Shown here piece after piece: positions 7,269-54,567 of a stretch of DNA of 64,000 nucleotides. The translations under genes and the position numbers were made by a program. The notes below the pieces were generated by a model. It worked only from the letters and a program-made list of their open reading frames with translations. It was not told the DNA's origin and made no database searches. The stretch is from contig JAJDCB010000024.1 in NCBI GenBank assembly GCA_029261065.1, forward strand, positions 12,129-76,128, given 5' to 3'. The stretch comes from Candidatus Omnitrophota bacterium (lineage in GTDB: Bacteria; Omnitrophota; Gorgyraeia; Zapsychrales; Zapsychraceae). Numbering within the stretch: the first letter of the stretch is position 1; each line of letters opens with the position of its first letter.

Positions 7269-8102
7269 TTAAGGTCTTCGTGGGAATTTGGAAAAATCTG
7301 GTTTGCGTTTTTCAACAAAAGCATTGCGCCCTTCTTGGCCTTCTTCACTCATGTAATAAAGCATCGTCGCATTACCGGCTAATTCTTGAAGGCCTGCTTG
7401 GCCATCGCAATCGGCATTAAGGGCCGCCTTCAAACATCGAATGGCCATGGGGGAATTGGCTAATATCTCACGGCACCATTGAACGGTTTCCGTTTCGAGA
7501 TCTTTATAAGGAACAACTTTATTAACGAGACCCATATCAAGAGCCTCTTGCGCATTGTATTGTCGACAAAGAAACCAAATTTCGCGTGCCTTTTTCTGAC
7601 CGACAATGCGCGCCATATAACTCGCACCATAACCACCATCAAAAGATCCTACTTTAGGGCCTGTTTGACCAAAAATTGCATTATCAGCGGCAATACTTAT
7701 ATCACAAATCAAGTGAAGAATATGCCCACCTCCTACTGCAAAACCAGCGATCATCGCAATAATGGGTTTAGGACATGTCCGCATCTGGCGCTGAAAATCA
7801 AGGACATTCAAACGATTCGTCCCCTTAGCATCTTTGTAACCCGCATCCCCTCGAATTTTCTGATCACCACCAGAACAAAAAGCCTTCTCACCCGCTCCGG
7901 TTAAGATAATGACGCCAATCGATTCATCCTCACGGGCGTCATTTAAGGCTTGAGACATCTCCATAACAGTCTGCGGACGAAAAGCGTTACGTACTTCAGG
8001 GCGGTTAATCGTGATCTTTGCGATCCCTTCGACTTTATTGTATTTAATATCCGTATATTCGTTGTTCGATTTCCAACTTATTTTTTGCATTTTTGTCGTC
8101 AT
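7269..8102 (-). CDS. menB: 1,4-dihydroxy-2-naphthoyl-CoA synthase (crotonase fold)
   Basis: 277 aa; characteristic MenB N-terminus and crotonase core ([12 protein letters not shown]..., [17 protein letters not shown]). Confidence 0.9.
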
Positions 8103-12058: not shown

Positions 12059-12061
12059 GGG

Positions 12062-14141: not shown

Positions 14142-15800
14142 TTAGGGGGTTTTTATTTCAAATATCGTAGAGGTCTTTTTTTCAAAAGATTTTGGGTAGT
14201 TTTTAGTCAAGGCCTTAATATCTGTTATCAAAACGTGATCTAAATTAAAGAGATGGGCTGTTGAGTCAAATTGAAGATTATGAGGAGTTATAAAGTATTG
14301 CTCAAAAACGTCTTTATATTCTGATATGGGAAGATTGCGAAAAATGCCGCCGCCATTGTTGTTTACAACAATAATTGTCATCGGGTTTTTTAGGTCTTTA
14401 AGCATGGCTAATGAATTGAGATCATAGAGAAAAGCCAAATCACCAATAAGAAGTGTCACGCGTTTATTTAATCCTTGTGAAAATCCACAGGCACTTGCAA
14501 TCGTGCCATCTATTCCACTTGCCCCACGATTGGAACCGATCATGGTCTCTTCTCCCTTATGGTCTGCAAACATATCCATCTCGCGAATAGGCAAACTGCT
14601 TGAAAGAAAGAGGCCTGTGTCTTTGGGAATCAATTGGGAGATGAGCCTTGGGATTGAAGGTTTAAATGAGATGGATTGTGATAATTTCTGAAGGTTTGAC
14701 AGTAACGTTGGTTTCTTTTTCTTCTTTAATTTGGTACAAATGCTATCACAAAGTTTACCCACAGGCGCTTGAAGTCGCATGGTGACATTATGTAAGGGAT
14801 CATTTCGTAAAGGATGATTGAGGACCATAATGTATTGTTTTGGCGATTTCTGTTCAACAAATTGATACCAGCGTTTAGATGTGATGCGGCCTCCTAAATG
14901 AAGAACACCGTCACAGGTTATTTGTTTTTTGGCAGAAGTCGATAAAAGGATTTGATCAAAATAAGGAATGATGTTTTTATGATCAATACCCACCCTCAAT
15001 CCTGAAGTGATATCTGGAAAAATGGGCCAACCAAGTTTTTCTGATAGTTTAAGAACGCTTAAACGATCTTTTTTTGCAATTTTTCCAACAACGATGATTC
15101 CCCTTTTTATAGCATTAATTTGAGATGTTACATTTAAGAGATCATCATTTGATAGTGTAGGGTTAGCCGTCGTGTAGTGTGTGTAAACTTTTTTTGACTT
15201 TTGCCAAGTTTGTATATGTTTAAGATACCGTGTAAAGTTCTCTTTTGATGGCGACGGTTCTAGCGGTTCACGAAACATACAATTTAAATGCACAGGTCCC
15301 TTCAATTCTCCCATAGAACGATGAATGGCCTGATCAACAGTCGTTAATATAAATTCAGCTGGGATATCTTGCGTGGGTGTTGGCATGTCAAAGCTCCAAC
15401 GCACATAATCACCAAAGATTTTAACTTGATCGATGGTTTGGTTCGCGCCGGTAAATCGTAATTCTGGCGGACGATCAGCTGTCAAAATGATGAGCGGAAT
15501 TTTTTTCTTTGAGGCCTCAATGATGGCTGGAAATAAATTGCCTAAAGCGCTGCCTGAGGTTGTAATAACGATACTTGGTTTCCCAGTTGCTGAGCTATAT
15601 CCAAGAGCATGAAAGCCCTCTCCTCGTTCGTCAAAATGCACAAAGGTTTTCATCTTTGGATTAAGTGCCGCTGCCACCGTTAAAGGCGCGCTGCGGGAAC
15701 CAGGTGAGATACAACAGTAATCTAAGCCATTACGCACAAACTCCTCAATCAAAAGATTCGACCAGAGATAATTAATGTTGGGAGATTTTGATATAGACAT
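14142..15800 (-). CDS. menD: SEPHCHC synthase (2-succinyl-5-enolpyruvyl-6-hydroxy-3-cyclohexene-1-carboxylate synthase), ThDP-dependent
   Basis: 552 aa; N-terminus LWSNLLIEEFVRNGLDYCCISPGSRSAPLT is typical of MenD; ThDP-binding GDLAFLYDLN motif. Confidence 0.9.
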   Translation of the reverse strand: MSISKSPNINYLWSNLLIEEFVRNGLDYCCISPGSRSAPLTVAAALNPKMKTFVHFDERGEGFHALGYSSATGKPSIVITTSGSALGNLFPAIIEASKKKIPLIILTADRPPELRFTGANQTIDQVKIFGDYVRWSFDMPTPTQDIPAEFILTTVDQAIHRSMGELKGPVHLNCMFREPLEPSPSKENFTRYLKHIQTWQKSKKVYTHYTTANPTLSNDDLLNVTSQINAIKRGIIVVGKIAKKDRLSVLKLSEKLGWPIFPDITSGLRVGIDHKNIIPYFDQILLSTSAKKQITCDGVLHLGGRITSKRWYQFVEQKSPKQYIMVLNHPLRNDPLHNVTMRLQAPVGKLCDSICTKLKKKKKPTLLSNLQKLSQSISFKPSIPRLISQLIPKDTGLFLSSSLPIREMDMFADHKGEETMIGSNRGASGIDGTIASACGFSQGLNKRVTLLIGDLAFLYDLNSLAMLKDLKNPMTIIVVNNNGGGIFRNLPISEYKDVFEQYFITPHNLQFDSTAHLFNLDHVLITDIKALTKNYPKSFEKKTSTIFEIKTP

Positions 15801-23242: not shown

Positions 23243-25117
23243 TTGAGATATAAATTTAAAGAGAATATTATTATGGTTGTCAAAATTCACTCCTTTCATA
23301 TCCCTGTTATGGGTTCGGCTTTCTCTATTGATACGCCGATCAAGGTAGCTCAATACGGTATATCCTCTGTTATTTCTTTAGTGGATGATGCTCTTATTGA
23401 ACAAATGCGCCAACATTATGCCAAAATGGTCGGTGAAGAGTATACGCCCATTACGAAATATGATGAAGATTTTCGAGCGCAACGCATTAAAGAATATCTG
23501 AATCTAGTTCATCGCATCGTTAAACAAAAGTTTGAAAAAGTCAAAAATTCTTCCTTTGAAACGGGTAGCGAAATTGTTAAATATTTTGAATCTCTGCCTG
23601 AAAATTCTATTCTTAAAGCACAATATTTAAAAATGTTAGACGTAACTGATCCAAAATTGAAAGCGGTCTTACAAGAAAGACTTCGTAACGAAATGCAGCC
23701 AGGTAGTATTGATGTTAATATTATGACAAAACTGGATAAAACGAATTATGCAAAGGATCGAACAGAACTTCCTTCTGAGTATTCAGATGCCCTTGCGGCT
23801 CTTCGCGGTTATGCGGAAAGTTCTCTGGATTCGGCGATAGTTTTCTCCGCGGGTATTAACCGTCGTCTTTATAGTTATGTTGAAAAATTTAAAGATTTTT
23901 ATGCCGATGCCACAGGTCATATCAAGAAAAAAATTATATTAAAGGTAAGTGATTATCGGTCCTCTTATATTCAAGGTCGATTTTTCGCTAAAAAGGGTTT
24001 GTGGGTCTCTGAATACCGTATTGAATCAGGTCTTAATTGTGGAGGCCATGCCTTCGCCTCTGATGGTTATCTTATGGGGCCGATGTTAGATGAATTTAGA
24101 CGACGCAAAGACGAATTATGTACAACTCTTTACAAAATTTATAATGATGCTTTAAAAGCTAAGAATAAAGACACTTTTGATCAACCTCATGCTTTAAAGG
24201 TTACGGCTCAGGGTGGTATTGGGACGGCCAAAGAAAATAACTTCTTAATGAATTATTTTCAAATTGATGGTACAGGCTGGGCGACACCCTTTTTACTTGT
24301 TCCTGAGGTTACTAATGTCGATGGGCCGACACTTGAAAAATTATCCGAAGCCACTCAAAAAGAATTGTATTTAAGTGATGTCTCCCCTTTAGGAGTGCCT
24401 TTTAATAACATAAAAGGAAGTTTTAGTGATACCGAAAAAGAACGTAAAGCTACGACAGACAAGCCTGGTAGTCCTTGTCCAAAAGGGCATTTGATTTCTA
24501 ATACAGAGTTTACAAAAATACCTATCTGTACGGCTTCAAGGCAATATCAGAAACTAAAATTTGATCAACTCAAAGCCATGAATTTATCAAAGGCTGCTTT
24601 TGATGAGAAATATACGCAGATGACAAAAAAGGCCTGTATTTGTAATGACTTGGGTGAGGCGGCTTTAATCAAAAACGATATTGATCAAAAACCAAATATC
24701 AAACGGTTTTCAGCAATATGCCCTGGTCCAAATTTAGCTTATTTTACGAAAGTGACTTCTTTTAGTGAGATGGTGAGTCATATCTATGGTCGAATGAATC
24801 TATTGAATAATACCTATCGACCCAATATGTTTATTAATGAATTAAAGATGTATATCGATTATTTTAAAAAGGAAGTTCAAAAAATAGCTATTGAGCCAAC
24901 AGAAAAACAAGTTAAGTATTTAAATGAATTTAAAATAAATATGTTAGAGGGTATTGATTTTTATAAAGAGTTTTTTCCAAGGATGGTAGAGGAAACTCAA
25001 GACTATCGTAATCGGGCGTTAACAGAACTGAACAGCTATAAAAAGAAACTAGAAGAGTTTCTTTCCGAACACTCCAACATCTTCTCAAACTCTCTTCCAC
25101 CGATGCTCGTTGTGTAA
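23243..25117 (+). CDS. Large hypothetical protein with a divergent NMO/FabK-like FMN TIM-barrel N-terminal half plus a unique C-terminal ~250 aa
   Basis: 624 aa. PVMGSAFS...AQYGISSVISL (cf. PIIQAPMAGVS...AVSNAGGLG), NCGGHAF (cf. EAGGH) and TAQGGIGT...TGWATPFLLVPE (cf. AAGGI...MGTRFL..ES) are colinear with nitronate monooxygenase / enoyl-ACP reductase FabK family motifs. Divergently transcribed from bioB. Possible alternative start at 23273. Confidence 0.4.
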   Translation: MRYKFKENIIMVVKIHSFHIPVMGSAFSIDTPIKVAQYGISSVISLVDDALIEQMRQHYAKMVGEEYTPITKYDEDFRAQRIKEYLNLVHRIVKQKFEKVKNSSFETGSEIVKYFESLPENSILKAQYLKMLDVTDPKLKAVLQERLRNEMQPGSIDVNIMTKLDKTNYAKDRTELPSEYSDALAALRGYAESSLDSAIVFSAGINRRLYSYVEKFKDFYADATGHIKKKIILKVSDYRSSYIQGRFFAKKGLWVSEYRIESGLNCGGHAFASDGYLMGPMLDEFRRRKDELCTTLYKIYNDALKAKNKDTFDQPHALKVTAQGGIGTAKENNFLMNYFQIDGTGWATPFLLVPEVTNVDGPTLEKLSEATQKELYLSDVSPLGVPFNNIKGSFSDTEKERKATTDKPGSPCPKGHLISNTEFTKIPICTASRQYQKLKFDQLKAMNLSKAAFDEKYTQMTKKACICNDLGEAALIKNDIDQKPNIKRFSAICPGPNLAYFTKVTSFSEMVSHIYGRMNLLNNTYRPNMFINELKMYIDYFKKEVQKIAIEPTEKQVKYLNEFKINMLEGIDFYKEFFPRMVEETQDYRNRALTELNSYKKKLEEFLSEHSNIFSNSLPPMLVV

Positions 25118-28342: not shown

Positions 28343-29770
28343 CTAACGCAAATTAACAGTTTGACCATCCGCAATACTTCCAACAACAAAAGGACCAAAG
28401 TTTAATCTTGCGGATTGGCCGTCTGCTGTGACATCAATGCTAATATCAAAACTCGTGCCATTAGCTGTTCCGGCAGGTATATCTAGATCCATATCTGAAG
28501 CGTTATCGGTTTGTGTGGTTCCTCCTGGTGGGGCATTGCTAAGAGTTGCATCTGTATTATGCGTAAAACTCCAGCCATTGGATACCTGCGCATTGCTATA
28601 GCTTATACCCGTGGAGGTGACTGTTCCTAAATTTACTAAAAGAAAATCGATCTCAAAACCATCCCCTGCTTGTACGAAACCATCACCATTGACATCCAGA
28701 CAACCAGAACAATTCACCCCTGGAAAACGTGTGGCGAGTTGAATATTAGTTAAGTTGCCTAAAACATTTTTACTATCTGAACTTTTCTCAACAACAATAT
28801 TAAAATTTCTTTCAACACGATCCAATAAGAGATCTTTTAAATCAATTTTTGGATAAGCTGTTTTTGAAAATTTGATCTCTTCGAGAATATCAGCAGGTTT
28901 CAAACTATTAATAGCAAATTTAAATCGCGCATCAACGCGATAATTCGTTTCTGCTAATTCATTATTAAAGGCTTGAAGGTTGATTGTAAATATATCTTTG
29001 GCTGATATTTCGGCTCGATGTGTCCAAGTTCTTAAATCCTCTGAATTTTTAAAATAATATCGTGTAAACCCTTCATATAATTTCAACCATGGTGCGTAAG
29101 GAACCCTCCCCCCAAGCTCAAGATCGAAACCATCAGCAGCCTCTTCATAGAAATTATTAAAAAACGTTTTTTTAACTAACTTTCTTCCAGAGTGGGCATT
29201 ATAAAGATTAAGGCGTCCTTCAATATTGTCACTTAACACCTCAAATCCAAGGCCTGTACGATAATGTATATTTAGGGATTGATAGTCAAAAAATCCATTA
29301 ATACCAAGGATCCATTCTTCATCCATGACAAGTCGTCGATAGCCAAGACCAACACTTCCCTTAAACTCACCATCGCCCTCACTAGAAACACGATCATGTG
29401 TAAATACGGTATGCCTTTTGTCAGTTGACTGATATATCGGCAGGACGGTTTCTATATAGTATTGCGGATGAGGGTTCACGGTATCATCATAGATAAGACC
29501 AAAATCGACATGCTTGAGAATTAAATCCAACCACTCTTCAGGATCGTCTGGTCTATATTTTTGTGTTGTATCCTCTTCATCGACATAGATCGGCTCTAAT
29601 TCTAAATATAACTGCTTGGCTTCATATTTTTCTATTTCATCAAGCTCATTGTTTATGATGTTATGACGTCGTTTTTGATATCTTTGATTGAATTCCGCTG
29701 AAGAGAAGGAATATTCGAAGAGAAATATACTAAAGATGATAATAATAGCGCAGTTTAATTTAGTTTGCAT
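28343..29770 (-). CDS. Inverse autotransporter-like outer-membrane protein (intimin/invasin-type beta-barrel with short C-terminal Ig-like passenger)
   Basis: 475 aa; signal peptide. Central region LGINGFFDYQSLNIHYRTGLGFEVL...RLNLYNAHSG...GFDLELGGRVPYAPWLKLYEGFTRYYF resembles the intimin/invasin beta-domain. Gly/Thr/Asp-rich C-terminus. Confidence 0.5.
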   Translation of the reverse strand: MQTKLNCAIIIIFSIFLFEYSFSSAEFNQRYQKRRHNIINNELDEIEKYEAKQLYLELEPIYVDEEDTTQKYRPDDPEEWLDLILKHVDFGLIYDDTVNPHPQYYIETVLPIYQSTDKRHTVFTHDRVSSEGDGEFKGSVGLGYRRLVMDEEWILGINGFFDYQSLNIHYRTGLGFEVLSDNIEGRLNLYNAHSGRKLVKKTFFNNFYEEAADGFDLELGGRVPYAPWLKLYEGFTRYYFKNSEDLRTWTHRAEISAKDIFTINLQAFNNELAETNYRVDARFKFAINSLKPADILEEIKFSKTAYPKIDLKDLLLDRVERNFNIVVEKSSDSKNVLGNLTNIQLATRFPGVNCSGCLDVNGDGFVQAGDGFEIDFLLVNLGTVTSTGISYSNAQVSNGWSFTHNTDATLSNAPPGGTTQTDNASDMDLDIPAGTANGTSFDISIDVTADGQSARLNFGPFVVGSIADGQTVNLR

Positions 29771-35623: not shown

Positions 35624-36769
35624 TTATTCTGTGTTAAGTCGTTGCCCTTTTTGATCATATTCTTTTGTTGCGACTAGTTTACCATTTTTATAAATCCATT
35701 CAACTCTAATATCTCCATTTTCATAAAACTCTTTTGTGGGGCCATCTTGAACGTCGTCTTTGTAATGATAAATGGCCTTACATTCCCCACTTTCTAAATA
35801 TTCCGTACTCGCCCCATTTAGCTTATCATTGCAATAATTCTTTTCATAATGCAGCTTTCCATCATCATAATATTCTTTGGTTAAACCATTTAATTCATTA
35901 TTTTTATACTGCCATTCCATTTTTAGAGTTCCATTTTCTAAAAATTCTTTAGATAGCCCATTTAATTGATCAGTATCATAGGTGCGTTGGTAGTGTAGTT
36001 GACTATTTAGAAAATATTCATTTGATAGTCCGCTAAGTTGGTTATTTTTGTAGTTCCAGCTAAACAAAAGATTATTAGATTGATCAAATTCGCGGGCCTC
36101 GCCTTCAAGGGTATCATTTTGATAGGGCCATTCGATAATTTTTTTCTCCTCTATTCTAAATTCTTTGGAGGATCCATTTAAAAATCCCTTTTCATAGTTC
36201 CATTGATATATTAAATTATTGTTATCATCATATTCTTCTGTAACGCCATGTTGTTCCATATTCAGATAATGTTTTTTAAAAATAACGGTTCCATTTTCTC
36301 TAAATTCTGTATGCATCCCATCTTTAAGCCTATCATTCTCAAAATGCCATTGATGAATAAGGTTTCCTTGTTTATCAAATTCTTGAGATAAGCCTTCAAG
36401 CTTTTCGTTTACATAATGACGTTCATAATGTAGCCCACCTTCTTCATAAAATTCTTTATGCACGCCATCTATGATCCTCCCTTTTTGAAAAGACCATTCC
36501 ATATGGAGATGTCCGCTTGGGTAGAAATCTTTGTGGGTGCCATCTGTAAGATTACCGTCTTTATAGAGCCTTTCTGAGCGTAGAGCTCCGTCTTCGTAAT
36601 ATGCTTTAAGAAGTCCTTCCATGTAATCATCTTTATATGGTTTTTCTTCTCTTATTTGGCCGCTTTTATAGAATTCCGTATAAACACCTTCTTTTTTACC
36701 ATAAAGTTCGTGCCACTGGGCTTTAAGCTCTCCAGAATCATAAAAAATCTTTTTTAAGGCGTGTTTCAT
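35624..36769 (-). CDS. MORN-repeat protein (YwqK-like)
   Basis: 381 aa composed almost entirely of ~23-aa repeats, e.g. G.HKEFYENG.L..E..Y.N.KLDG, repeated more than 12 times. No signal peptide. Confidence 0.8.
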   Translation of the reverse strand: MKHALKKIFYDSGELKAQWHELYGKKEGVYTEFYKSGQIREEKPYKDDYMEGLLKAYYEDGALRSERLYKDGNLTDGTHKDFYPSGHLHMEWSFQKGRIIDGVHKEFYEEGGLHYERHYVNEKLEGLSQEFDKQGNLIHQWHFENDRLKDGMHTEFRENGTVIFKKHYLNMEQHGVTEEYDDNNNLIYQWNYEKGFLNGSSKEFRIEEKKIIEWPYQNDTLEGEAREFDQSNNLLFSWNYKNNQLSGLSNEYFLNSQLHYQRTYDTDQLNGLSKEFLENGTLKMEWQYKNNELNGLTKEYYDDGKLHYEKNYCNDKLNGASTEYLESGECKAIYHYKDDVQDGPTKEFYENGDIRVEWIYKNGKLVATKEYDQKGQRLNTE

Positions 36770-43943: not shown

Positions 43944-45344
43944 TTAAAGGATCTCTCTTATATCTGAAATTTTTCCATTGATGGCGGCTAAAACAACCAT
44001 TTCAGGGCTCATTAAATGCGTTCGTCCGCCAGGTCCTTGTCGTCCTTCAAAGTTTCTATTACTTGATGAGGCACAACGTTCGCCTTTTTTAAGTTGATCG
44101 TCATTCATCCCCAAACACATCGAGCAACCCGCAAAACGCCATTGGAATCCAGCTTCCGTAAAGATTTTATCTAATCCTTCCGCTTGAGCTTGATTACGCA
44201 CACGGCCAGAACCAGGAACAACAATGGCTTCAACGTTTGCGTGCACTTTTTTTCCTTTAACGATTTCGGCAGCGACTCGTAAATCTTCAATACGGCCATT
44301 GGTACAAGAACCCAAAAATGCTTTTTCGATTGTGATGTTATTCATCGGCGTCCCGGGCTTTAAATCCATATAATCAAGGGCATTACGAGCCCCTGTTCTT
44401 TCGACGGGATCTGTGAATGAATCAGGATCTGGAACAACACCATCGATTGATGTCACTTGTCCGGGTGATGTTCCCCAAGTCACTTGAGGTTTAATATCTT
44501 CCGCTTTAATATCCATTCTGTGATCAAAAGAGGCTCCTTCATCACTCGATAACGTTTTCCAATAAGCAACAGCTTGTTCCCACAATTCACCTACGGGAGA
44601 AAACTCTTTATCTTTTAAATACGCAAACGTTGTGTTATCAGGAGCAATCATGCCCGCTCGTCCCCCCGCTTCAATACTCATGTTACAAATCGTCATCCGG
44701 CCTTCCATGGATAAATTTTTGATAGCGCCTCCGGCGTATTCCATCACATAACCCGTCGCCCCAGCTGTTCCAATTTGACCAATAATATAAAGAATAATAT
44801 CTTTAGGCGTAACCCCTTTTTCAAGGTTGCCTTCGATATTGATTAACATTGTTTTTGATTTGTTTTGTTGAAGAGTTTGTGTGGCCAAAACATGTTCGAC
44901 CTCTGAGGTTCCAATACCAAAAGCCAAAGAACCAAAAGCGCCATGTGTCGCGGTGTGTGAATCGCCACAAACAATAACTGTTCCAGGCTTCGTAATCCCT
45001 AATTCAGGACCAATGACATGAACAATACCCTGATTTTTATGAGAAAAGTCATAAAGCGTGACATCAAATTCTTTGCAGTTTTTAGACAATGTATCCATTT
45101 GAATGCGTGACGTTTCCTCAACCAACGACCAATCTTTCGTTCGTGTTGAAACATTATGATCCATCGTCGCAAACGTCTTCTCAGGACAACGCACCCCGCG
45201 TTTTGTAAGTCTTAATCCTTCAAACGCTTGCGGACTTGTCACTTCATGAACAAGATGAAGATCGACATAAATAATAGAAGTATCCCCTTGTGACTCCCGC
45301 ACCAAATGCGCATCCCAAATTTTTTCGAACATTGTTTTTGGCAT
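43944..45344 (-). CDS. leuC: 3-isopropylmalate dehydratase large subunit
   Basis: Aconitase-family catalytic domains. [15 protein letters not shown] aligns with the LeuC N-terminus, so the start is more likely 45344 than the ORF-track 45419. Confidence 0.8.
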
Positions 45345-45555
45345 AGTATAGATATTTTTGTAAATTGGCCTGAACAGACTTTTTAGGAAATTAATAAGCT
45401 CAGATTGTATATGATTCATTTCTTATTGTCAATATTTGAATACGAACAGTTAATTAAGAAAAGATATAGGCTTTATTGTTTTATACTGACCCCAGTTAAC
45501 AAAAAGGGCTAAATAGTGTTGAATTAAGTTCCAAGAAAGGAGTCTAATTTTTATT

Positions 45556-47004
45556 CTAAAAAGCCGATGGATACAATAATTCTATTAAGGTTTGGTCGCC
45601 AAAATATTTGTAATCTCGATTACCTGGATCCGTCAATAGTTGACTAAAGTCTAAAGAGTCATAAGTTGAATTGTGTCGTGACTGTTCTATGTGAGCGATG
45701 AGCCGGGCCGAGGGTTGATCGAAAACGGCTCTTTTTTGTAAGATTCCATAGTCTATCCAGCCATAACAGAGAGTTAAGATTAGACAATTTATTGCAATAA
45801 TTTTATTTGATAGAGACCAATTGGGAAAGGGATTTATCTGGTCATGGGCAATGAGTATATATATAGCTGTCATCATGAAGGCCCAATAAAAGTAGGCCCA
45901 GTATAAGGTTTGTTTGAGATAGCTTAGGCTGCGTGGGCCGACGCGAAAAATGGAGAATAAAAAACATAGCAAAAGAATTAGGCTAATAAATAGAAAAAAC
46001 AAATTTTTTAGCCCTGTTTCCCCTTTCATCAATGTTCGACTTTTTTTTAGAACTAAGAAACCCTTGATAATGAGAATGATGTTTAAGATAGTTAAAGGAT
46101 TAAATTGAGTAATAATTTTAAACGAAAAACGTTCTGCTAAGAAACAAAATTGATTTTGAAAAGGGAAAATCCCTAAGTTAAGCCATCGAAGAAAGACACA
46201 GGGGATGTTGCCTAAGCCTTTTGTCAAAAATTTTCCTTTAATGGCATAGCCTTGCTGACTAGAAAGACTTGAATAATAATTTGCGAACCAGTTGATACCA
46301 TTAAACGCCATAAACACAAGAATGGGGACAAAAAGCATAACAAGCCATTTCTTTCCTTCTCTATTTTGTGGCCAGGTTGCCCAAAGATAAAGGATCAACC
46401 CCAATATTATAAACACGCTAAATTCGCAAAACAAACAGGCCATTGTCAGCATAACGCTGTTGGTGACAATCATCTTTTTTAACGTTATGTGTTGGCGTAC
46501 AAATAAAAAACAATTCCGAATGGCCAAAAATACGAATATAAGCGATACAAGATAGCCATTGATATTTGTCCAGATGACCAAGTCCAAATTAACGGGCATA
46601 ACCGAGAACATCGCTGTAAATAAAAGCGCTAACCAACTCTCCTTGATGCTGGTTAAGAGTCGCCATAAGACCCACAAAAATATCAAATGAAATCCAATTC
46701 CAACTAATTGCCAAAGATGAAAAGAATAGCCGAACAAAAAGCGCTCTGTTCCTAAGAGAGCATACAAAAAAGGACGAAAAAGCCAAGTATCACCAGAGGA
46801 GATATATGTGCCGCGATTTAAGTCCATATTTTTTAGCACTAAGGATGAGAAATTTGTTTGATCAGCGACTGTAGATAGATAAGCGATTTGATCACTACGG
46901 GGAATGTGTTTTAAAGAAGGCCAAAAAACAATAAGATTAAATATACAAATCAGAGCGAAAAAAAAGTATGTATTAAAGATCTTCTTGTTTGTTTGATTCA
47001 TCAT
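45556..47004 (-). CDS. Polytopic integral membrane protein (>=10 predicted TM), possible GT-C-type glycosyltransferase or polysaccharide-export component
   Basis: 482 aa, very hydrophobic and aromatic-rich. No soluble domain recognised. Same strand, immediately downstream of the FemAB-like/deacetylase pair. Confidence 0.4.
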   Translation of the reverse strand: MMNQTNKKIFNTYFFFALICIFNLIVFWPSLKHIPRSDQIAYLSTVADQTNFSSLVLKNMDLNRGTYISSGDTWLFRPFLYALLGTERFLFGYSFHLWQLVGIGFHLIFLWVLWRLLTSIKESWLALLFTAMFSVMPVNLDLVIWTNINGYLVSLIFVFLAIRNCFLFVRQHITLKKMIVTNSVMLTMACLFCEFSVFIILGLILYLWATWPQNREGKKWLVMLFVPILVFMAFNGINWFANYYSSLSSQQGYAIKGKFLTKGLGNIPCVFLRWLNLGIFPFQNQFCFLAERFSFKIITQFNPLTILNIILIIKGFLVLKKSRTLMKGETGLKNLFFLFISLILLLCFLFSIFRVGPRSLSYLKQTLYWAYFYWAFMMTAIYILIAHDQINPFPNWSLSNKIIAINCLILTLCYGWIDYGILQKRAVFDQPSARLIAHIEQSRHNSTYDSLDFSQLLTDPGNRDYKYFGDQTLIELLYPSAF

Positions 47005-47142
47005 GATGGGGGATTATACAGATATTGGTTGGAGAAAGCAAGGTGTGCCCATTCAACGAAAAACGAATCAAATAAAGTCACCCGTATTTGATTTATAAAT
47101 TTTTGTTCTGCACAATGTTAACAATAGCGTCTGCTATTTTTC

Positions 47143-48174
47143 TTAAAGAGGGAATTGTTTTATCGCATGTTGTCCAATAATTTTTGTGATGAAGACAGGC
47201 ATTTTTTTGTAAAGAGATAAGGCTAACCCCATTTTATTTTTGGATTCTCCTACTGAGGGTGGATGTTTGGTATTTTTTAAAAAATAAGAATGGTAAACTT
47301 GTTCTGGGGCGCCACCCCATTGACGTTTAAATAAATAGGTTCCTGAACCATGTTGACTGCGACCAAAATTAAAATTTTTAAACCCTGCCTCGCCACTATT
47401 TTTGATAGCCTCCCAATAGAGAAGAAAATTAGGACTATAACGGAAGTATTCTCTTAATGATGATGCGAATAAATTAAAAGCTAAATCTTTAAAACAAAAT
47501 AATAGAAGTCCTCCTATCATTTTATCGTTGTGATAAGCAACAAACAATTTTGAGGGAAAGATATTACAAAGCTGTTGCATAAAAGATATAGGATACGTTA
47601 GCCCACCGATGTCTCTCATATTGCGTGCATAAATCGTATGGAAATCTTTTAAAGCTGAGATATCTTCTTTAACAATAATTTTTGATTTAATGGCCTTACG
47701 CACAAGATTTCGTGCTTCAGCTTGAAGAGCATTTTTCCAGATTTGATCAGTATCTGTTGATAAAGGTAAAATAAATTCGACATTTTCTTTTGTTACCTTT
47801 TGTGCTGTTTGAATAGCTGAAAACTGACGAAACTCGAGAAAATCAACTTTTAACTCATCTCCTAGTTTTTGAGCCTTTTTTATTAGCTCTTCTTGAGCAT
47901 CATTATCATCAGCTAGAAGTCCGCTCGCGCCGAATGGTACATTAATTAAAATTTTTCCGAAAGGTTTTGTTCTTGCAAAAAAAAGGGGTAATACGCCCTT
48001 GATAACACCATTGTTTTCTGCCGTCAGATAATATCCTTTATAGCCATAATATTGTTCAATGAGTTGCTTTAAGCCATAATCATGAAAAATGGTTGCGTTG
48101 TTATTGTGTTGGATATACTCATTCCAAGTCAATTTTTTATCAGAATTTGAAATGTTGGGGGGCGTCATCTGCAT
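47143..48174 (-). CDS. FemAB-family (GNAT-fold aminoacyl/peptidyl transferase-like) protein, of the kind associated with exopolysaccharide loci
   Basis: 343 aa; N-terminal ...WNEYIQH...IFHDYG... region. Overall size and pattern recall FemAB-related proteins found adjacent to polysaccharide deacetylases. 35-nt overlap with the upstream deacetylase gene. Confidence 0.5.
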   Translation of the reverse strand: MQMTPPNISNSDKKLTWNEYIQHNNNATIFHDYGLKQLIEQYYGYKGYYLTAENNGVIKGVLPLFFARTKPFGKILINVPFGASGLLADDNDAQEELIKKAQKLGDELKVDFLEFRQFSAIQTAQKVTKENVEFILPLSTDTDQIWKNALQAEARNLVRKAIKSKIIVKEDISALKDFHTIYARNMRDIGGLTYPISFMQQLCNIFPSKLFVAYHNDKMIGGLLLFCFKDLAFNLFASSLREYFRYSPNFLLYWEAIKNSGEAGFKNFNFGRSQHGSGTYLFKRQWGGAPEQVYHSYFLKNTKHPPSVGESKNKMGLALSLYKKMPVFITKIIGQHAIKQFPL

Positions 48175-49147
48175 GAACGTTTTTTCCTTTTAAAGAGGCT
48201 GCCATCTCATTAAGGGTAATGAGTGTATAATCGCGTTTCATCCAATTTAGCAGACTAGAAAAGGAAGTTAAACGTTTTTCTAAGGGGAGCGAACAATAGG
48301 TTTTGGTAAGAATAAAATCTTCTTCTACTCCTGCGATATCACTTTCTTGAGTAAATTCGTTAATATGAAATTGAAGATTGATCATAGGTCTGCGGCTTAA
48401 ATTATAAAATAATGAGGCTGGAAGAAAACGATGAAAACAAAGAAGCACTGCACTGATAAAGGGCAAATCGATTCCTTTCATTTTCCCAATCGGAATTTCT
48501 ATAAAACTAGATTTCTCATCATTTTCTTCTTTTTTCCAAAAGGCATCCGCCCTCGGAATATAGGGAACGGCTGGTGAAGCATAATGTTTCAATTTCTGTA
48601 AAACCAAATAATTTTTATTTTTAATAAACAATTGTTTATAAATACTTTTCAAGATGAAATAAAATAAAGAATTGTTTAACGAGGCATCATATGAATATTG
48701 ACGTTTTCGTAAAATTGTAAAAACATCTTCATCGATTGTATAACCAGGCGCTCTAAATCCTTCTGGTCGTTTTCCCGTAATCCTTTCTATTTCTTTCTCC
48801 GCCAGCGCAATCTCCTGCTCTTTATCCACCATGGAAAGAAGCGCAAATTGCTTAGGATGATTCATCGTGTGATTAGCAATCTCATGGCCGTCGTTATCAA
48901 TAGATTTGATAACTTCTGGAAATGTCTTTACATCTTGACCAATACAGAAAAAAGTAGCTTTAAGATTTTCACTTCTAAGAAAATTTAAAAATCGTGGTAC
49001 AACCCTTTGATAAGTAATTTCCTTTAAAAGGTTAGGATTATTCGAAGGCTCACGCAAATCATCGTTAAGCGTATCGAGGTCAATGTTGATATTGGCAAAA
49101 GTTTTATTTTGTGACATTAGTTTAGTAATAATAAAGATGGCAAACAT
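48140..49147 (-). CDS. Polysaccharide deacetylase (CE4 / NodB-homology domain)
   Basis: 335 aa; the NodB motifs TFFCIGQD and HEIANHTMNHP are visible. Confidence 0.8.
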   Translation of the reverse strand: MFAIFIITKLMSQNKTFANINIDLDTLNDDLREPSNNPNLLKEITYQRVVPRFLNFLRSENLKATFFCIGQDVKTFPEVIKSIDNDGHEIANHTMNHPKQFALLSMVDKEQEIALAEKEIERITGKRPEGFRAPGYTIDEDVFTILRKRQYSYDASLNNSLFYFILKSIYKQLFIKNKNYLVLQKLKHYASPAVPYIPRADAFWKKEENDEKSSFIEIPIGKMKGIDLPFISAVLLCFHRFLPASLFYNLSRRPMINLQFHINEFTQESDIAGVEEDFILTKTYCSLPLEKRLTSFSSLLNWMKRDYTLITLNEMAASLKGKNVHADDAPQHFKF

Positions 49148-49181
49148 ATTATCTATAAAATATATTTACCATCTTTAGGTT

Positions 49182-51884
49182 TTAAGCCAATTTTCGAATA
49201 ACAGTCTGCAGAATACCTCCATTACGGAAATAATCAATTTCCACAGGAGTATCCAAACGAACTGTCATTGAAAAGGTTTGTGATGAGCCTTTAGGAGGGG
49301 TTGCAGTAACCTTAATTGTCTGGCGTGGTTTTAGCGTATCATCAACACCTTCAAAGTCAAATGTCTCATCCCCCTTTAAGCCTAATTTCTCAGCACTTTG
49401 ATTATTTTGAAATTCTAGAGGTAACACACCCATGCCAGCTAGGTTGCTACGATGAATGCGTTCGTAGCTTTGGGCTAGAACGGCGCGGACACCTAAGAGT
49501 GCGGTTCCTTTTGCTGCCCAGTCACGGCTAGAACCTGTCCCGTATTCTTTTCCAGCCAAGACAACGAGCGGAGTGTTTGATTCTTTATAAAGGTTGGATG
49601 CGGCATAAATGCTCATTTTTTCTTTGGTAGGAAAATGCATCGTCCATGAACCTTCTGTACCTGGAGCTAATTGATTGCGCAGTCGAATATTGGCAAAGGT
49701 TCCGCGTGTCATGATGCGATCATTTCCTCGGCGAGAACCGTAGCTATTAAAATTATTTTGTGAGACCCCCTCTTCTTCTAAATAATCACCAGCTGGACTT
49801 AGTTTTGCAATCGCGCCAGCGGGAGAAATATGATCCGTTGTAATCGAATCGCCCACCATAACCAGAACGCGTGCGCTATTAATTCCTTTAATATCATCGG
49901 GCTCTTTATTCATACCAATAAAAAAGGGTGGTTCTTGAATGTAGGTGCTTTTTTTCTTCCAAGCATATAAATCCGATTTTGTTTCTTTAATCGCATTCCA
50001 ATTTTTATTGCCACGGCTGACATCTTTGTAACGTTTACGAAAGGCTTTGGCGTTAACATATTTGGCGATGTAATCCCCAATCTCTTTTTGTGTTGGCCAA
50101 ATGTCTTTCAGAAAGACATCCTTACCCTTCTTATCTTGTCCAATAGGCTCTTTATCTAAATTTTGATCAACACGACCGGCTAACGCATAGGCGACAACTA
50201 AAGGTGGACTTGTTAGATAGTTCGCTTTTGTATGAGGATTGACTCGGCCTTCAAAATTACGGTTACCACTTAAAACACTAGCCGCCACAAGATCTACTTT
50301 TTGAATAGCGGTTGATACCGCCTCTGGCAACGGTCCACTATTTCCAATACATGTCGTGCAACCATATCCGACAATATGAAATCCTAATTTTTCCAAAAAC
50401 GGCAGTAAGCCTGAGGCGCGAATATATTCATCAACCACTTGAGAACCTGGAGCGAAACTGGTTTTGATATATTTTTTTACCCTTAATCCACGTTCAACAG
50501 CCTTTTTGGCTAATAAGCCGGCTCCAATGAGAACCGAAGGGTTAGACGTGTTGGTACAACTTGTAATAGCCGCAATAACAACGGAACCATGCTCTAATTT
50601 TTCTTTTGTTCCATTTTCAACAAAAGTGCTTTTGCTTAATTCATTTGTTTTTAATCCAAACCCTCTATCTTTTACAGGAGCGATAAGATCTTTTTGAAAG
50701 TTTTGTTTCATCGAAGACATAGGAACTCGGTCTTGAGGCCGTTTGGGTCCAGCTAGACAAGGCTCAACAGTAGAGATATCTAATTCCATGGATGAGGAAT
50801 ATTTAGGGTCTTTGTCTGTTGGCGAATAAAACATATTTTGATCTTTCATGTAACGTTCAACAAGATCAACCTCAGCCGGTGTTCGTCCGGTGAGTTTGTA
50901 GTAATTTAGCGTTTCTTGATCAACAGGAAATAAACCAATGGTAGCTCCATATTCCGGAGCCATGTTTGATAGGGTCGCGCGATCGGGTAAACTTAAATGA
51001 GCAAGACCATCACCAAAGAATTCAACAAATTTGCCAACAACACCTTTGGCCCTTAACATTTGAGTAACCGTTAAAACTAAATCCGTGGCCGTGATCCCTT
51101 CTTTGAGTTGTCCCTTTAATTTAAAACCAACGACTTCGGGCATAAGCATGTAAATAGGTTCACCTAACATAACAGCTTCTGCTTCAATTCCTCCCACGCC
51201 CCAACCCACAATACCCAGTCCATTAATCATCGTTGTGTGACTATCGGTACCAACAAGGCTATCAGGATAGACAACGGTTTCTTTGCCAATCTTTTTCTTT
51301 AAAACCCCTTTGGCTAAATATTCTAAATTGACTTGATGAACAATCCCTGTTGCTGGCGGTACCACACGAAAATTTTTAAAGGCATTCTGCCCCCATTTTA
51401 AAAATTCATAGCGTTCTTTATTACGTTTAAATTCCAAAGCTACATTTTTTCCAAGGGCTGATTTTGATCCAAAAGCATCAACTTGAACGGAGTGATCAAT
51501 AACGAGATCACACGGCACTTGTGGATTAATTTTTTTAATGTCTCCTCCAAGCCTTTTCATTGCCGCTCGCATGGCCGCTAAATCAACAACACAAGGAACC
51601 CCTGTAAAATCTTGTAAAACAACGCGTCCTGGTTTAAACGCAATTTCTTTTGGTTTATTAGATTTTGGAGACCAACTTAATAAATTTTTGATATCTGTTA
51701 ATGTAACTTGATAGTCATCATAATTTCGTATGGCACTTTCTAAGAGGATTTTGATGGAAAAAGGCAAATGCGATGGATCACCTAAACCTACTTTGGCGAG
51801 TTTGGGTAACGAATAAGTTGTAAAACTTGAAGATTTAGATTTGAGTGTTTTTTTAACATCTTTTTGAGGAAATGTGGATCCCAT
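49182..51884 (-). CDS. acnA: Aconitate hydratase A
   Basis: 900 aa; aconitase A/IRP-type four-domain protein with the three Fe-S Cys ligands and SR(R/G) motifs. Confidence 0.9.
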
Positions 51885-52109: not shown

Positions 52110-53627
52110 TTGAAAGTATGTATTCTAAATCCATCTTTTGGAGATGATTTTGTGCGTGTGGCGCGTTGGGCGGCAAAGTCCAGAGGACGGGTTCAACGCC
52201 ATCCAGAATATATGTTAACAGCGGCACAAGTCCTTATTGATCAAGGTCATGACGTTATTTATGTTGAGGCCGCAGCCCGAAACTTTACACCTGAAGAAAC
52301 CTATAAAATCGTTAATGATTTTAAGCCTGAATTGTTAATGCTTCATGCAACAACTCCCTCCATTTATAACGATATCGAACAAGCCAAGGTTATTAAAGAA
52401 CAAAACAATTGCAAGGTTGCCTTTGTCGGTCAACATGCGAGTGCTGAACCAGAAAATACCATTACGATTAGTGAGGGTGTTGTGGATTACATTTTATTAG
52501 GGGAATATGACTACACCCTACGGGATCTTGCCGACGGGTTGACACCATCAAAAGTATTGAGCTTGGTCTGGAATGATGGTGGAAATATTATTACAAACCC
52601 TCAACGTCAATCCATTGATGTTAATGAACTCCCTTTTCCTGCTTGGCAATTAATTGAACCCGAATGGTATCCAGATGGTGGTAAAAAATTTCCATTTTTA
52701 ACGTTAATGACGGGTCGTGGTTGTAATAATGGTTGTACGTTTTGTCGTGACCCTCAAATCATGTATGGCTATCGTCTTCGAAATAGAACGGCACAGAGTG
52801 TTGTGGATGAAATGGAATATGATATTAAATTACACCCACAAGTGCGTGAAATCATGTTTGAAACAGATACCTTTGCTGCTGACGATGAGCATGTGACAGA
52901 AGTTTGTAATGAGATTATTAAAAGAGGATTACATAAGAAAATTAGTTGGTCATGTAATATGCGTGTGAATACTAATCTTGATCTCTTACCTCTTATGCGT
53001 AAATCGGGTTGTCGTATGCTTATGACGGGGTTTGAATTTGGTTATGATGAAGGGTTAAAAGCGGTAGCTAAAGGTGGTGTTGATGTCGCGATGGCGGCTA
53101 AGTACGCGCATAAAGCCAATGAATTAGGTTTTACGATTCATGGATGTTTTATGATTGGTGCTCCTGGCGAAACACGCGAAACAGCCCAACAAACTATCGA
53201 TTTTGCTAAATCTCTTCCCCTGGATACTATACAGATTACAGGTGTAGCAACGTATCCTGGAACATCTATCTATAAATGGGCAAAAGAAAATGAATATCTG
53301 CGGGCCAATGATTGGCGTGAATGGCTCAATGCTGAGAAAGAACAACGAACTTTGTTAAGTTATCCTCAGTTCTCCTCGCAGGATATTGATGAATATATCG
53401 ACCGCGGTTTAAAAGAATTCTATCTACGCCCTAAGCAAATATGGCAGATGTTTATCTCCATTCGAAGTGTGGGCGATTTATTAAGAAAAATACACGGCTT
53501 TAAAGCTTTTACCGATTACTTTTATAAAAAGCTCTCAGGAAAGTTTGACAATCATGATATGCCTGAAACACCAGCTCTAGAAAAACAAGCGGAATCAATA
53601 GAAAGATGTGAAACTGTTGGCGTTTAA
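52110..53627 (+). CDS. B12-binding-domain radical SAM protein (class B-like), substrate unknown
   Basis: 505 aa. Rossmann-like cobalamin-binding N-domain, then radical-SAM GRGCNNGCTFC. Apparent TTG start at 52110 (in-frame TAA 18 nt upstream, AAGGGA SD); no in-frame ATG nearby. Confidence 0.75.
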   Translation: MKVCILNPSFGDDFVRVARWAAKSRGRVQRHPEYMLTAAQVLIDQGHDVIYVEAAARNFTPEETYKIVNDFKPELLMLHATTPSIYNDIEQAKVIKEQNNCKVAFVGQHASAEPENTITISEGVVDYILLGEYDYTLRDLADGLTPSKVLSLVWNDGGNIITNPQRQSIDVNELPFPAWQLIEPEWYPDGGKKFPFLTLMTGRGCNNGCTFCRDPQIMYGYRLRNRTAQSVVDEMEYDIKLHPQVREIMFETDTFAADDEHVTEVCNEIIKRGLHKKISWSCNMRVNTNLDLLPLMRKSGCRMLMTGFEFGYDEGLKAVAKGGVDVAMAAKYAHKANELGFTIHGCFMIGAPGETRETAQQTIDFAKSLPLDTIQITGVATYPGTSIYKWAKENEYLRANDWREWLNAEKEQRTLLSYPQFSSQDIDEYIDRGLKEFYLRPKQIWQMFISIRSVGDLLRKIHGFKAFTDYFYKKLSGKFDNHDMPETPALEKQAESIERCETVGV

Positions 53628-54069: not shown

Positions 54070-54567
54070 ATGTGGTTTTTCATGATTAGTTGTTATGTGA
54101 TGAGTTTGTTAACATTGCTCATGCTTTGTATTGGTTTTTTTCAGAGCTTTTTAAATTTTCACATCCTTAGTGCTAATCATGTGGTCTTTATGATTTTAAC
54201 CAGTATTATTTATTCCTTCACAGAAACGCTTGTGATCTTTTTCTTCGTCGGCACGGGAGTCAGTGTTAAGGAGTATGTGCGTGATCACAAAGTAGAGGGC
54301 GATTTCCATAAACGTTCTATTGCTATTAAAAGAATAGTCTATCCTCCCTTACTTATGAATATGCTTTATATGATTATCCTCTTCGTTCTCGTTGGTGCTG
54401 TGGATACCCTTCGTATTGCAGGTTGGATTTATTATGTGTTGTTTGCCTTTTGCATTATCGATTATGTACGCATAAAAGCCATACAAAACAAATGTTTTAA
54501 AGATAACACAGCAATCATTCTTGAGATGTCCGGGATTAAATCACCGCTCGTTACGGGAACGACTTAA
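54070..54567 (+). CDS. Hypothetical membrane protein
   Basis: 165 aa with 4-5 hydrophobic segments; no recognisable motif. Confidence 0.4.
   Translation: MWFFMISCYVMSLLTLLMLCIGFFQSFLNFHILSANHVVFMILTSIIYSFTETLVIFFFVGTGVSVKEYVRDHKVEGDFHKRSIAIKRIVYPPLLMNMLYMIILFVLVGAVDTLRIAGWIYYVLFAFCIIDYVRIKAIQNKCFKDNTAIILEMSGIKSPLVTGTT

Follow-up and report, generated by a model that had tools for sequence, protein, structure and literature searches.

In a 64,000-nt stretch of the metagenome-assembled genome of a Candidatus Omnitrophota bacterium (contig JAJDCB010000024.1; "the window" hereafter, to whose full length our statements of absence from it refer), three genes lie between acnA and leuC that encode a carbohydrate esterase family 4 (CE4) deacetylase, a transferase of the Fem family and a large membrane protein with the fold of GT-C glycosyltransferases. 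We favour, with moderate confidence, an interpretation in which the first two enzymes form a sugar-editing pair of the kind known as Vim in two oral Bacteroidota and the third delivers the edited sugar, the whole being a 3.7-kb cassette inserted between acnA and the leuC promoter.

Organization of the cassette

A first-pass annotation, made from the sequence alone, had described here a NodB-type CE4 gene overlapping a FemAB-family gene by 35 nt and followed by a large polytopic membrane protein, all co-oriented. That description is borne out by the ORFs (open reading frames) and by matches to PF01522 and TIGR03019, and the three minus-strand ORFs between acnA and leuC agree with it to the nucleotide. 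The features of the region are as follows.

49182-51884: acnA, flanking the trio upstream
49132-49177, minus strand: 19-bp inverted repeat (hairpin), arms 49132-49150 and 49159-49177, 89% complementary, 8-nt loop
48140-49147, minus strand: CE4 deacetylase gene, ORF of 335 aa, no signal peptide, VimE-like by family
47143-48174, minus strand: Fem-family transferase gene, ORF of 343 aa, double-GNAT protein like VimA and TIGR03019
47058-47093, minus strand: A/U-rich hairpin followed by a U-run, from sequence and RNA fold
45556-47004, minus strand: polytopic membrane-protein gene, ORF of 482 aa, GT-C fold
45404-45432, minus strand: promoter-like site of leuC, TTGACA-17-TACAAT, 11/12 match, downstream edge of the insertion
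downstream of the trio: leuC-leuD-ilvD-aroC

The three ORFs are genes and not chance reading frames, because each of their products has real homologues elsewhere. The plus strand of 45556-49147 has no ORF of 60 aa or more, and the sole further ORF in the interval, of 65 aa on the minus strand (46589-46786), is nested in the membrane-protein gene. The CE4 and FemAB-like genes overlap by 35 nt (48140-48174), or by 29 nt if counted from the second ATG, which gene callers take as the start of the FemAB-like gene (341 aa).

The hairpin at 49132-49177 directly follows the acnA stop codon, bounds the cassette on its upstream side and takes in the first CE4 ATG (49147); because that ATG lies within the hairpin, the true CE4 start is probably the ATG at 49117, for a protein of 325 aa. 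The repeat may serve to terminate acnA or to regulate the cassette, and an unrelated GC-rich terminator hairpin occupies the equivalent place in a related genome (locus L092). Between the FemAB-like and membrane-protein genes, the gap of 138 nt folds as a whole at -27.7 kcal/mol (z -2.1), and the hairpin at 47058-47093 within it possibly acts as a weak terminator or an attenuator; a consensus terminator scan did not call it, because the scan requires at least three G-C pairs. Searched against Rfam at E<=1, the cassette contains no riboswitch, T-box or other known RNA.

At the downstream edge, a ATTGACAAT...TA-AAT element also precedes leuC in L092, directly after the acnA terminator hairpin. 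In the window this conserved promoter-like element overlaps the first ATG of the leuC ORF (43944-45419; region 45344-45432), and that ORF is probably over-extended by about 25 codons; leuC of L092 starts at the equivalent of MPKTMF.

Insertion between acnA and leuC

The location, which had been remarked on as odd at first pass, is indeed so. In assembly GCA_029261055.1, with an AcnA of 78% identity, the order after acnA is a terminator hairpin, a ATTGACAAT-type promoter and leuC-leuD-ilvD-aroC, with nothing between, and in another relative a chemoreceptor gene lies in the acnA-leuC gap. Because close relatives (78-79% AcnA identity) thus have acnA directly before leuC or a different gene there, the trio is an accessory insertion of 3.7 kb in a variable location, absent from these relatives as one block. 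We considered an origin as a mobile element and set it aside: apart from the acnA-proximal hairpin, neither direct nor inverted repeats flank the trio, no integrase or transposase accompanies it, and its third-position GC content (GC3, 0.26-0.38) falls inside the host range.

The AT-rich intracellular lineage invoked by the first-pass annotation is not established, since the named close homologues of AcnA (72-76% identity) are all from Candidatus Omnitrophota and the remaining genes of the window are for menaquinone synthesis, an aa3-type oxidase, a 2-oxoacid:ferredoxin oxidoreductase, ThiC and similar housekeeping functions.

The CE4 deacetylase and the Fem-family transferase

The product of the first gene is a CE4 family member by its match to PF01522 (82.2 bits, cut-off 23.1, residues 46-152). 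In an alignment with 14 homologues the CE4 motifs D-x-D, H-T-x-x-H, R-A-P and F-H-x-x-E are conserved, reading I-D-L-D, H-T-M-N-H, R-A-P and F-H-I-N-E, and contain what we take, from established knowledge of CE4 enzymes, to be the metal-binding and catalytic residues. The N-terminus, MSQNKTFANINIDLD, has no signal peptide. An insertion at motif 1 and a different C-terminal half place the protein in a distinct subclade, and it is 45% identical to the CE4 protein encoded upstream of the closest FemAB homologue (locus L002), with which it shares a clade-specific hydrophobic insertion at approximately residues 158-175 that could be a membrane-interface element. Its best matches among NCBIfam models, PdaB (68 bits) and TIGR03006 (63 bits), are all far under cut-off, and it scores 19.7 bits against the ArnD model NF011923, for which 382 are required. 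The best sequence match in the PDB is Helicobacter pylori PgdA (3qbu).

The second protein aligns to TIGR03019 essentially from end to end (244.5 bits, E 1.4e-72, 2-330 of 330), a model whose cut-off its closest homologue, P0002, passes at 277.3 bits. A profile search of the PDB with the FemAB family returned only FemX, FemA and aminoacyl-tRNA-dependent peptide synthases, with the F-K motif aligned: F282 and K283, invariant in the aligned family members, fall on the FK motif of FemX. The AlphaFold model (pLDDT 91.8) is nearest in Foldseek to Weissella FemX (TM 0.68-0.70, E 1e-17), followed by Staphylococcus aureus FemX, the streptothrisamine complexes of Sbb17/Sba18, FemA and MprF's aminoacyl-phosphatidylglycerol synthase domain. 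With its double-GNAT fold and F-K motif the protein belongs to the Fem (FemABX) family, and judging from these models it is presumably an aminoacyl-tRNA-dependent N-aminoacyltransferase.

A different donor has to be weighed here, since an acyl-CoA-dependent N-acyltransferase would exchange the N-acetyl group for another acyl group and not for an amino acid. Such an enzyme would suit the best Pfam match, the generic GNAT family PF13480 (46.8 bits), which outscores PF02388 (27.8 bits against a cut-off of 24), although both are above cut-off, as well as the former annotation of VimA as an acetyl-CoA transferase, its donor not having been shown directly (PMC7468200), and the statement that the acyl donor of the related HfsK is unpredictable (PMC5362036). 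CoA-dependent double-GNATs (VipF, NMT) do appear in the Foldseek list, but lower down: all 22 of the 22 best structural matches, and all of the PDB profile matches, are aminoacyl-tRNA-dependent. The invariant F282 and K283 point the same way, as do the family members that carry an N-terminal tRNA-binding arm of the seryl-tRNA-synthetase type, and the linking sugars of the Vim system carry serine or glycine according to the vimA allele (PMC7468200). Transfer from acyl-CoA therefore appears improbable to us, and transfer from aminoacyl-tRNA is the reading we carry forward.

The same two proteins could also be taken for a peptidoglycan module, with a PgdA-like enzyme acting on murein GlcNAc and a FemX-like one adding an interpeptide branch to lipid II. 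Peptidoglycan deacetylases head the PDB sequence matches of the CE4 protein, and FemX-type enzymes that aminoacylate lipid II or UDP-MurNAc-pentapeptide head the PDB matches of the transferase. Murein deacetylases, however, act outside the cytoplasmic membrane, and the CE4 protein has no signal peptide; it reaches only 40-68 bits against the PgdA and PdaA models of NCBIfam (cut-offs 237-800). The transferase matches TIGR03019 over its full length at 244 bits and has no NCBIfam match to the FemX model NF047883 (30 bits for the closest homologue), and members of its family stand in polysaccharide loci and not in mur/dcw clusters. We regard a role in murein as highly improbable, and take the pair to edit a sugar.

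A membrane protein with a GT-C fold

The membrane protein, which the first-pass annotation had left uncharacterised, proves to have a GT-C fold. It has no match in Pfam or NCBIfam, and its family (592 relatives at E<=1e-3) has no sequence match in the PDB. Models of PMT_2, GT39 and GT83 (PF13231, PF02366) match neither the protein nor 61 of its relatives, which yield no glycosyltransferase family at all but six unrelated Pfam families, with one member each. The AlphaFold model (pLDDT 91.1, pTM 0.93), with about a dozen predicted transmembrane helices, nevertheless places it in the GT-C membrane fold: 28 of its 29 best Foldseek matches in the PDB are GT-C glycosyltransferases (STT3, AglB, PglB, Pmt, ArnT, DPY19, AftA and ALG3), headed by OST, PMT and ArnT structures, with a GPI-transamidase chain at rank 28.

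Near-invariant residues D38, R64, D72, F76-R77-P78 and E87 fall in the first loop, between the first and second transmembrane helices (TM1 and TM2). In GT-C enzymes the catalytic acidic residues sit in the loop after TM1, a likeness of position in the chain. On the strength of the model, the protein is presumably a polyprenyl-phosphate-sugar-dependent transferase working on the periplasmic side. Orthology with the PMT_2 proteins encoded after FemAB in loci L002 and L005 was sought with BLASTP and hhalign and is undetectable; the likeness is at the level of the fold.

Elsewhere in the family, a generic B12-binding radical SAM gene is directly adjacent in at least six distant members, sometimes together with a GT2 gene (L011 8160-11545; L099 241-3320; L102-L105). 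Other GT-C genes (PMT/PMT_2) stand beside LPG_synthase_TM flippase-like genes, or beside GT2 and LAB_N genes, in L092 (90-1514) and L095 (17486-20194). Because related Omnitrophota genomes carry GT-C genes next to such partners, modules for envelope glycosylation that combine polyprenyl-phosphate and GT-C functions appear common in the phylum.

Conservation of the pair and of the trio

A scan with the FemAB family, over a genome collection without the source genome and without the genome of P0002, gave 581 confirmed genomic matches, the best 80 of which were kept. Among these, a CE4 gene lies directly upstream of FemAB in 20 of the 74 loci with upstream sequence and within 10 kb in 36 of them, an AsnB-type amidotransferase gene is directly downstream in 15 of the 70 loci with downstream sequence, and a GT-C gene is a neighbour in none of the 80. 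Only in the clusters of the two closest FemAB homologues, P0002 (48% identical) and P0003 (43%), does a GT-C gene, of the PMT_2 type, follow FemAB at 36-61 nt, abutting a gene for a TIGR03108-like amidotransferase. The closest homologue shares the overlapping CE4-FemAB arrangement, and its cluster (L002) adds WbpA/B/E/D-like genes, an LPG_synthase_TM flippase-like gene and, directly upstream of CE4, a gene for an ArnC/DPMS-like polyprenyl-phosphate glycosyltransferase. The next-nearest homologues, P0004 and P0006, reside in ordinary exopolysaccharide (EPS) loci of the Wzx/GT4/AsnB or exosortase type.

The pair is thus co-conserved and the trio as such is not: of the co-conservation that the first-pass annotation had proposed checking, the CE4-FemAB part stands, and the GT-C gene is replaced by a non-orthologous PMT_2 gene in the nearest clusters, so that what recurs in this sub-clade is the placing of a GT-C gene after FemAB.

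A metagenome scan for the membrane-protein family gave nine loci, and tblastn detected no CE4 or FemAB remnants beside other members of that family. Three independent metagenome contigs (L010, L097, L098) end approximately 35 nt or less upstream of the membrane-protein homologue, and in L005-L007 the contigs end within the CE4 gene. As assembly breaks recur at these junctions, they suggest strain-level variation in upstream content. What looked like a split CE4 pseudogene in L005-L007 is truncation at the contig end.

These loci bear on whether the third gene belongs to the pathway at all. It might be a passenger, with the CE4-FemAB pair performing Vim-type editing for a cytoplasmic glycosyltransferase and a Wzx/Wzy or ABC pathway encoded elsewhere, as would agree with the predominance of FemAB loci of the Wzx/Wzy, GT4 or exosortase EPS type without GT-C, with the distant family members that pair with B12-radical-SAM genes, with the closest GT-C homologues, which stand without CE4 or FemAB, and with the 138-nt gap and its terminator-like hairpin. 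Set against this, relatives lack all three genes together at a single insertion site, and both of the nearest FemAB clusters place a GT-C gene likewise, tightly between FemAB and the amidotransferase. Moreover, only one upstream context among the GT-C homologues is informative, and it holds a transposase; three other contigs break at the 5' end of the gene. We judge a passenger role for the GT-C gene unlikely, if still a serious contender, and continue to regard the protein as the probable delivery enzyme of the pair.

Comparison with known systems

The pair resembles the Wbp/Vim pathway described in Porphyromonas gingivalis and Tannerella forsythia, where a CE4 enzyme and a TIGR03019-related transferase are proposed to act in sequence. 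VimE (CE4), in the proposed scheme, takes the 2-N-acetyl group off the di-N-acetyl-hexuronic acid made by the Wbp pathway, and VimA adds serine in P. gingivalis or glycine in T. forsythia, the residue being switched when vimA is swapped, as followed by mass spectrometry (PMC7468200). The products are 2-N-seryl- or 2-N-glycyl-3-N-acetyl-hexuronic sugars; WbpS makes the uronamide, and the free amine of the amino acid is the site of the amide link to type IX secretion system (T9SS) cargo (PMC7468200). VimA is reported to match TIGR03019, the family also matched by the window protein, and vimA, vimE and asnB neighbours in PEP-CTERM loci were already noted by the same authors (PMC7468200).

The window has a VimE-type CE4 gene and a VimA-type transferase gene side by side, a kinship assigned at the level of the family, and the cluster of its nearest relatives also shares the WbpA/B/E/D-like genes and a WbpS/TIGR03108-like amidotransferase. 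No Wbp enzyme is encoded in the 64-kb window; such enzymes are found beside the closest homologous pair, in L002. The window differs further in having no amidotransferase gene, in a host from the Omnitrophota and not the Bacteroidota, in the absence of any T9SS context that we could see, and in its GT-C-fold neighbour, whereas the Wbp/Vim pathway uses VimF-type cytoplasmic glycosyltransferases. N-deacetylation followed by N-aminoacylation of a glycan, as proposed in the first-pass annotation, remains the best reading of the pair; it is not new, given the Vim precedent, and the accompanying remark that no such modification is described for most AT-rich intracellular lineages needs correction, for the pathway type is known and its link to PEP-CTERM is in the literature (PMC7468200).

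That link concerns the triad of a TIGR03006 deacetylase, a TIGR03019 FemAB protein and a TIGR03108 amidotransferase in the exopolysaccharide loci of XrtA/PEP-CTERM systems, which the window pair also resembles. The FemAB-like protein of the window aligns to TIGR03019 from one end to the other, CE4 upstream and AsnB-like genes downstream recur among its homologues, and an exosortase is found in the locus of one of them. The window proteins are nonetheless below the cut-offs of the triad (244.5 against 260.35 bits, and 63 against 276.2), and exosortase, PEP-CTERM, Wzx/Wzy and amidotransferase genes are all absent from the window.

A second family of pathways adds aminosugars to lipid A: in ArnC-ArnD-ArnT, in Francisella FlmF2-NaxD-FlmK and in the Lgm system of Bordetella, a polyprenyl-phosphate sugar synthase, a cytoplasmic CE4 de-acylase, a flipping step and transfer by a GT-C enzyme follow one another. 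Locus L002 shares an ArnC-like GT2, a CE4 and a GT-C gene in that order, and ArnT is among the fold matches of the window protein. These pathways differ in having no Fem-type step, leaving the sugar amine free, and the window itself cannot be counted among them: it has no GT2, the ArnC-like GT2 being confined to L002, its CE4 protein scores 19.7 against 382 with the ArnD model, and its GT-C protein resembles neither ArnT nor PMT_2 in sequence.

The Fem-type step has its own parallels. FemX, FemA and FemB, together with Orf11 and Sbb17/Sba18, share the double-GNAT fold and F-K motif with the window protein, and Sbb17/Sba18, solved bound to streptothrisamine, are annotated in the PDB as aminoacyl-tRNA-dependent peptide synthases. 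The Fem-like Orf11 uses Gly-tRNA to glycylate the amine of an amino sugar, streptothrisamine (PMC12945691). The window protein differs from enzymes of the FemX/Orf11 type in its sequence (14-16% identity), in having no coiled-coil arm and in its expected acceptor, an envelope sugar precursor and not a murein peptide or antibiotic intermediate. In Caulobacter, it has been proposed that the cytosolic CE4 enzyme HfsH and the Fem-like GNAT HfsK share a lipid-linked polysaccharide precursor as substrate, HfsK placing an acyl group on the amine exposed by HfsH (PMC5362036). The hfs genes differ in that they do not form an overlapping pair, HfsK binds cyclic di-GMP, and there is no GT-C protein.

By analogy with these systems, the window pair most likely performs cytoplasmic de-N-acetylation and then N-aminoacylation, and the GT-C fold of the third protein, with the ArnC-like GT2 of the related cluster, suggests delivery in the manner of the lipid A aminosugars.

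Proposed mechanism

We envisage three steps. First, the CE4 enzyme, which its family, motifs and want of a signal peptide would place in the cytoplasm, would remove the N-acetyl group from an activated amino sugar, putatively a UDP- or polyprenyl-phosphate-linked N-acetylhexosamine or di-N-acetyl-hexuronic acid. Second, the Fem-family enzyme would place an amino acid, most likely from aminoacyl-tRNA, on the freed amine, as its family, its fold, the translational overlap of its gene with that of CE4 and the VimA precedent lead us to expect; the product would be an N-aminoacyl sugar with a new free alpha-amine. Third, if the fold of the membrane protein and the order of genes in the two nearest clusters are a guide, the sugar would be flipped as its polyprenyl-phosphate form and transferred by the GT-C-fold protein to a periplasmic or outer-membrane acceptor, perhaps a protein, lipid A or core, or some other glycan.

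Several observations weigh against this scheme. At the level of the profile searches recommended in the first-pass annotation, PF01522 and the full-length alignment to TIGR03019 confirm the family assignments, but the FemAB-like protein is a near miss, just under the TIGR03019 cut-off (244.5 against 260.35 bits), and the CE4 protein is far under that of TIGR03006 and not a member (63 against 276.2 bits, with only positions 33-145 of the 272 in the profile aligned). To our knowledge, VimA is the only TIGR03019-family protein with biochemical data, and these do not extend to an aminoacyl-tRNA donor (PMC7468200). On the side of delivery, the GT-C matches in Foldseek are modest (TM 0.3-0.5, E 1e-3 and weaker), the protein compares with the PMT_2 proteins of L002 and L005 at BLASTP E values of 0.002-0.1 and with that of L002 at a probability of 0.5% in hhalign, and its gene is parted from the pair by the 138-nt gap with its terminator-like hairpin. 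Its closest homologues (66% and 59% identity) have no CE4 or FemAB gene downstream, and the sole homologue with informative upstream sequence (L009) is preceded by a transposase. Finally, the 51 ORFs of at least 150 aa in the window include no exosortase, Wzx/Wzy or EPS glycosyltransferase, and the window has no Wbp genes, ArnC-like GT2, amidotransferase, flippase or PEP-CTERM genes; because it holds no Wbp, GT2, amidotransferase or flippase gene, the supply of substrate is encoded elsewhere or the pathway differs.

It is tempting to go further and to suppose that Omnitrophota and a few relatives have fused two envelope-editing logics, with enzymes of a new GT-C family attaching a polyprenyl-phosphate N-aminoacyl (possibly uronamide) sugar to a lipid or protein of the outer surface. 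We offer this broader proposal as a speculation that is doubtful as it stands.

Other features of the window

A B12-binding radical SAM gene near the cassette (52110-53627, plus strand; best match HpnJ at 329.6 bits, cut-off 577.6) was considered as a possible member of it and rejected: because L094, which has no trio, keeps an ortholog (940 bits) beside acnA, the gene is conserved backbone. Counterparts are found at L094 8309-9820, L002 14597-17438 and L015 11030-12496. HpnJ-like radical SAM genes lie near CE4-FemAB in L002 and L015, and an unclassified B12-binding one near the pair in L005; a looser functional link may join B12-radical SAM genes and CE4-FemAB pairs.

Within the menaquinone operon, between menB (7269-8102) and menD (14142-15800), three tandem paralogous ORFs of about 645 aa that end in Peptidase_S74 occupy 8196-14017 on the minus strand. 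In endosialidases and phage tail fibres, Peptidase_S74 acts as an intramolecular chaperone, and these ORFs could encode adhesins or tail-fibre-like surface proteins. Also on the minus strand are an inverse-autotransporter (intimin/invasin-type) beta-domain protein (28343-29770) and a MORN-repeat protein (35624-36769), both possible surface or host-interaction factors. Two plus-strand ORFs, of 624 aa (23243-25117) and 165 aa (54070-54567), have no significant Pfam family; the former shows a trace match to the 7TMR-HDED domain at 16 bits.

Implications

At the level of families, the chemistry of the pair and its genomic association are already known. New are the strain-variable insertion in Omnitrophota, the coupling of a Vim-type pair to a GT-C gene in a small sub-clade, and a sizeable family with a GT-C fold that had no annotation and is here brought to light. 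The practical value is moderate: annotation is refined and experiments are pointed to, and nothing is overturned.

Pairs of CE4 and Fem genes are present in hundreds of genomes from many phyla (581 matches), and their chemistry has been worked out only in two oral Bacteroidota, where the sugar bearing the amino acid serves to fix secreted proteins on the cell surface. The cassette and its two nearest relatives indicate a second use for such a sugar, namely delivery by a GT-C enzyme facing the periplasm, as for the aminosugars of lipid A. If the fusion of the two envelope-editing logics that we speculate on is real, the amine of the amino acid could serve as a cationic charge modifier or as the nucleophilic handle on which a sortase-like enzyme fastens surface proteins, as with PorU in the T9SS; were it a handle, the cassette would be a strain-variable switch for anchoring surface proteins in ultra-small, possibly host-dependent bacteria. 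For the Omnitrophota, an uncultured phylum, the cassette provides a concrete, testable set of surface-modification genes that varies between close strains.

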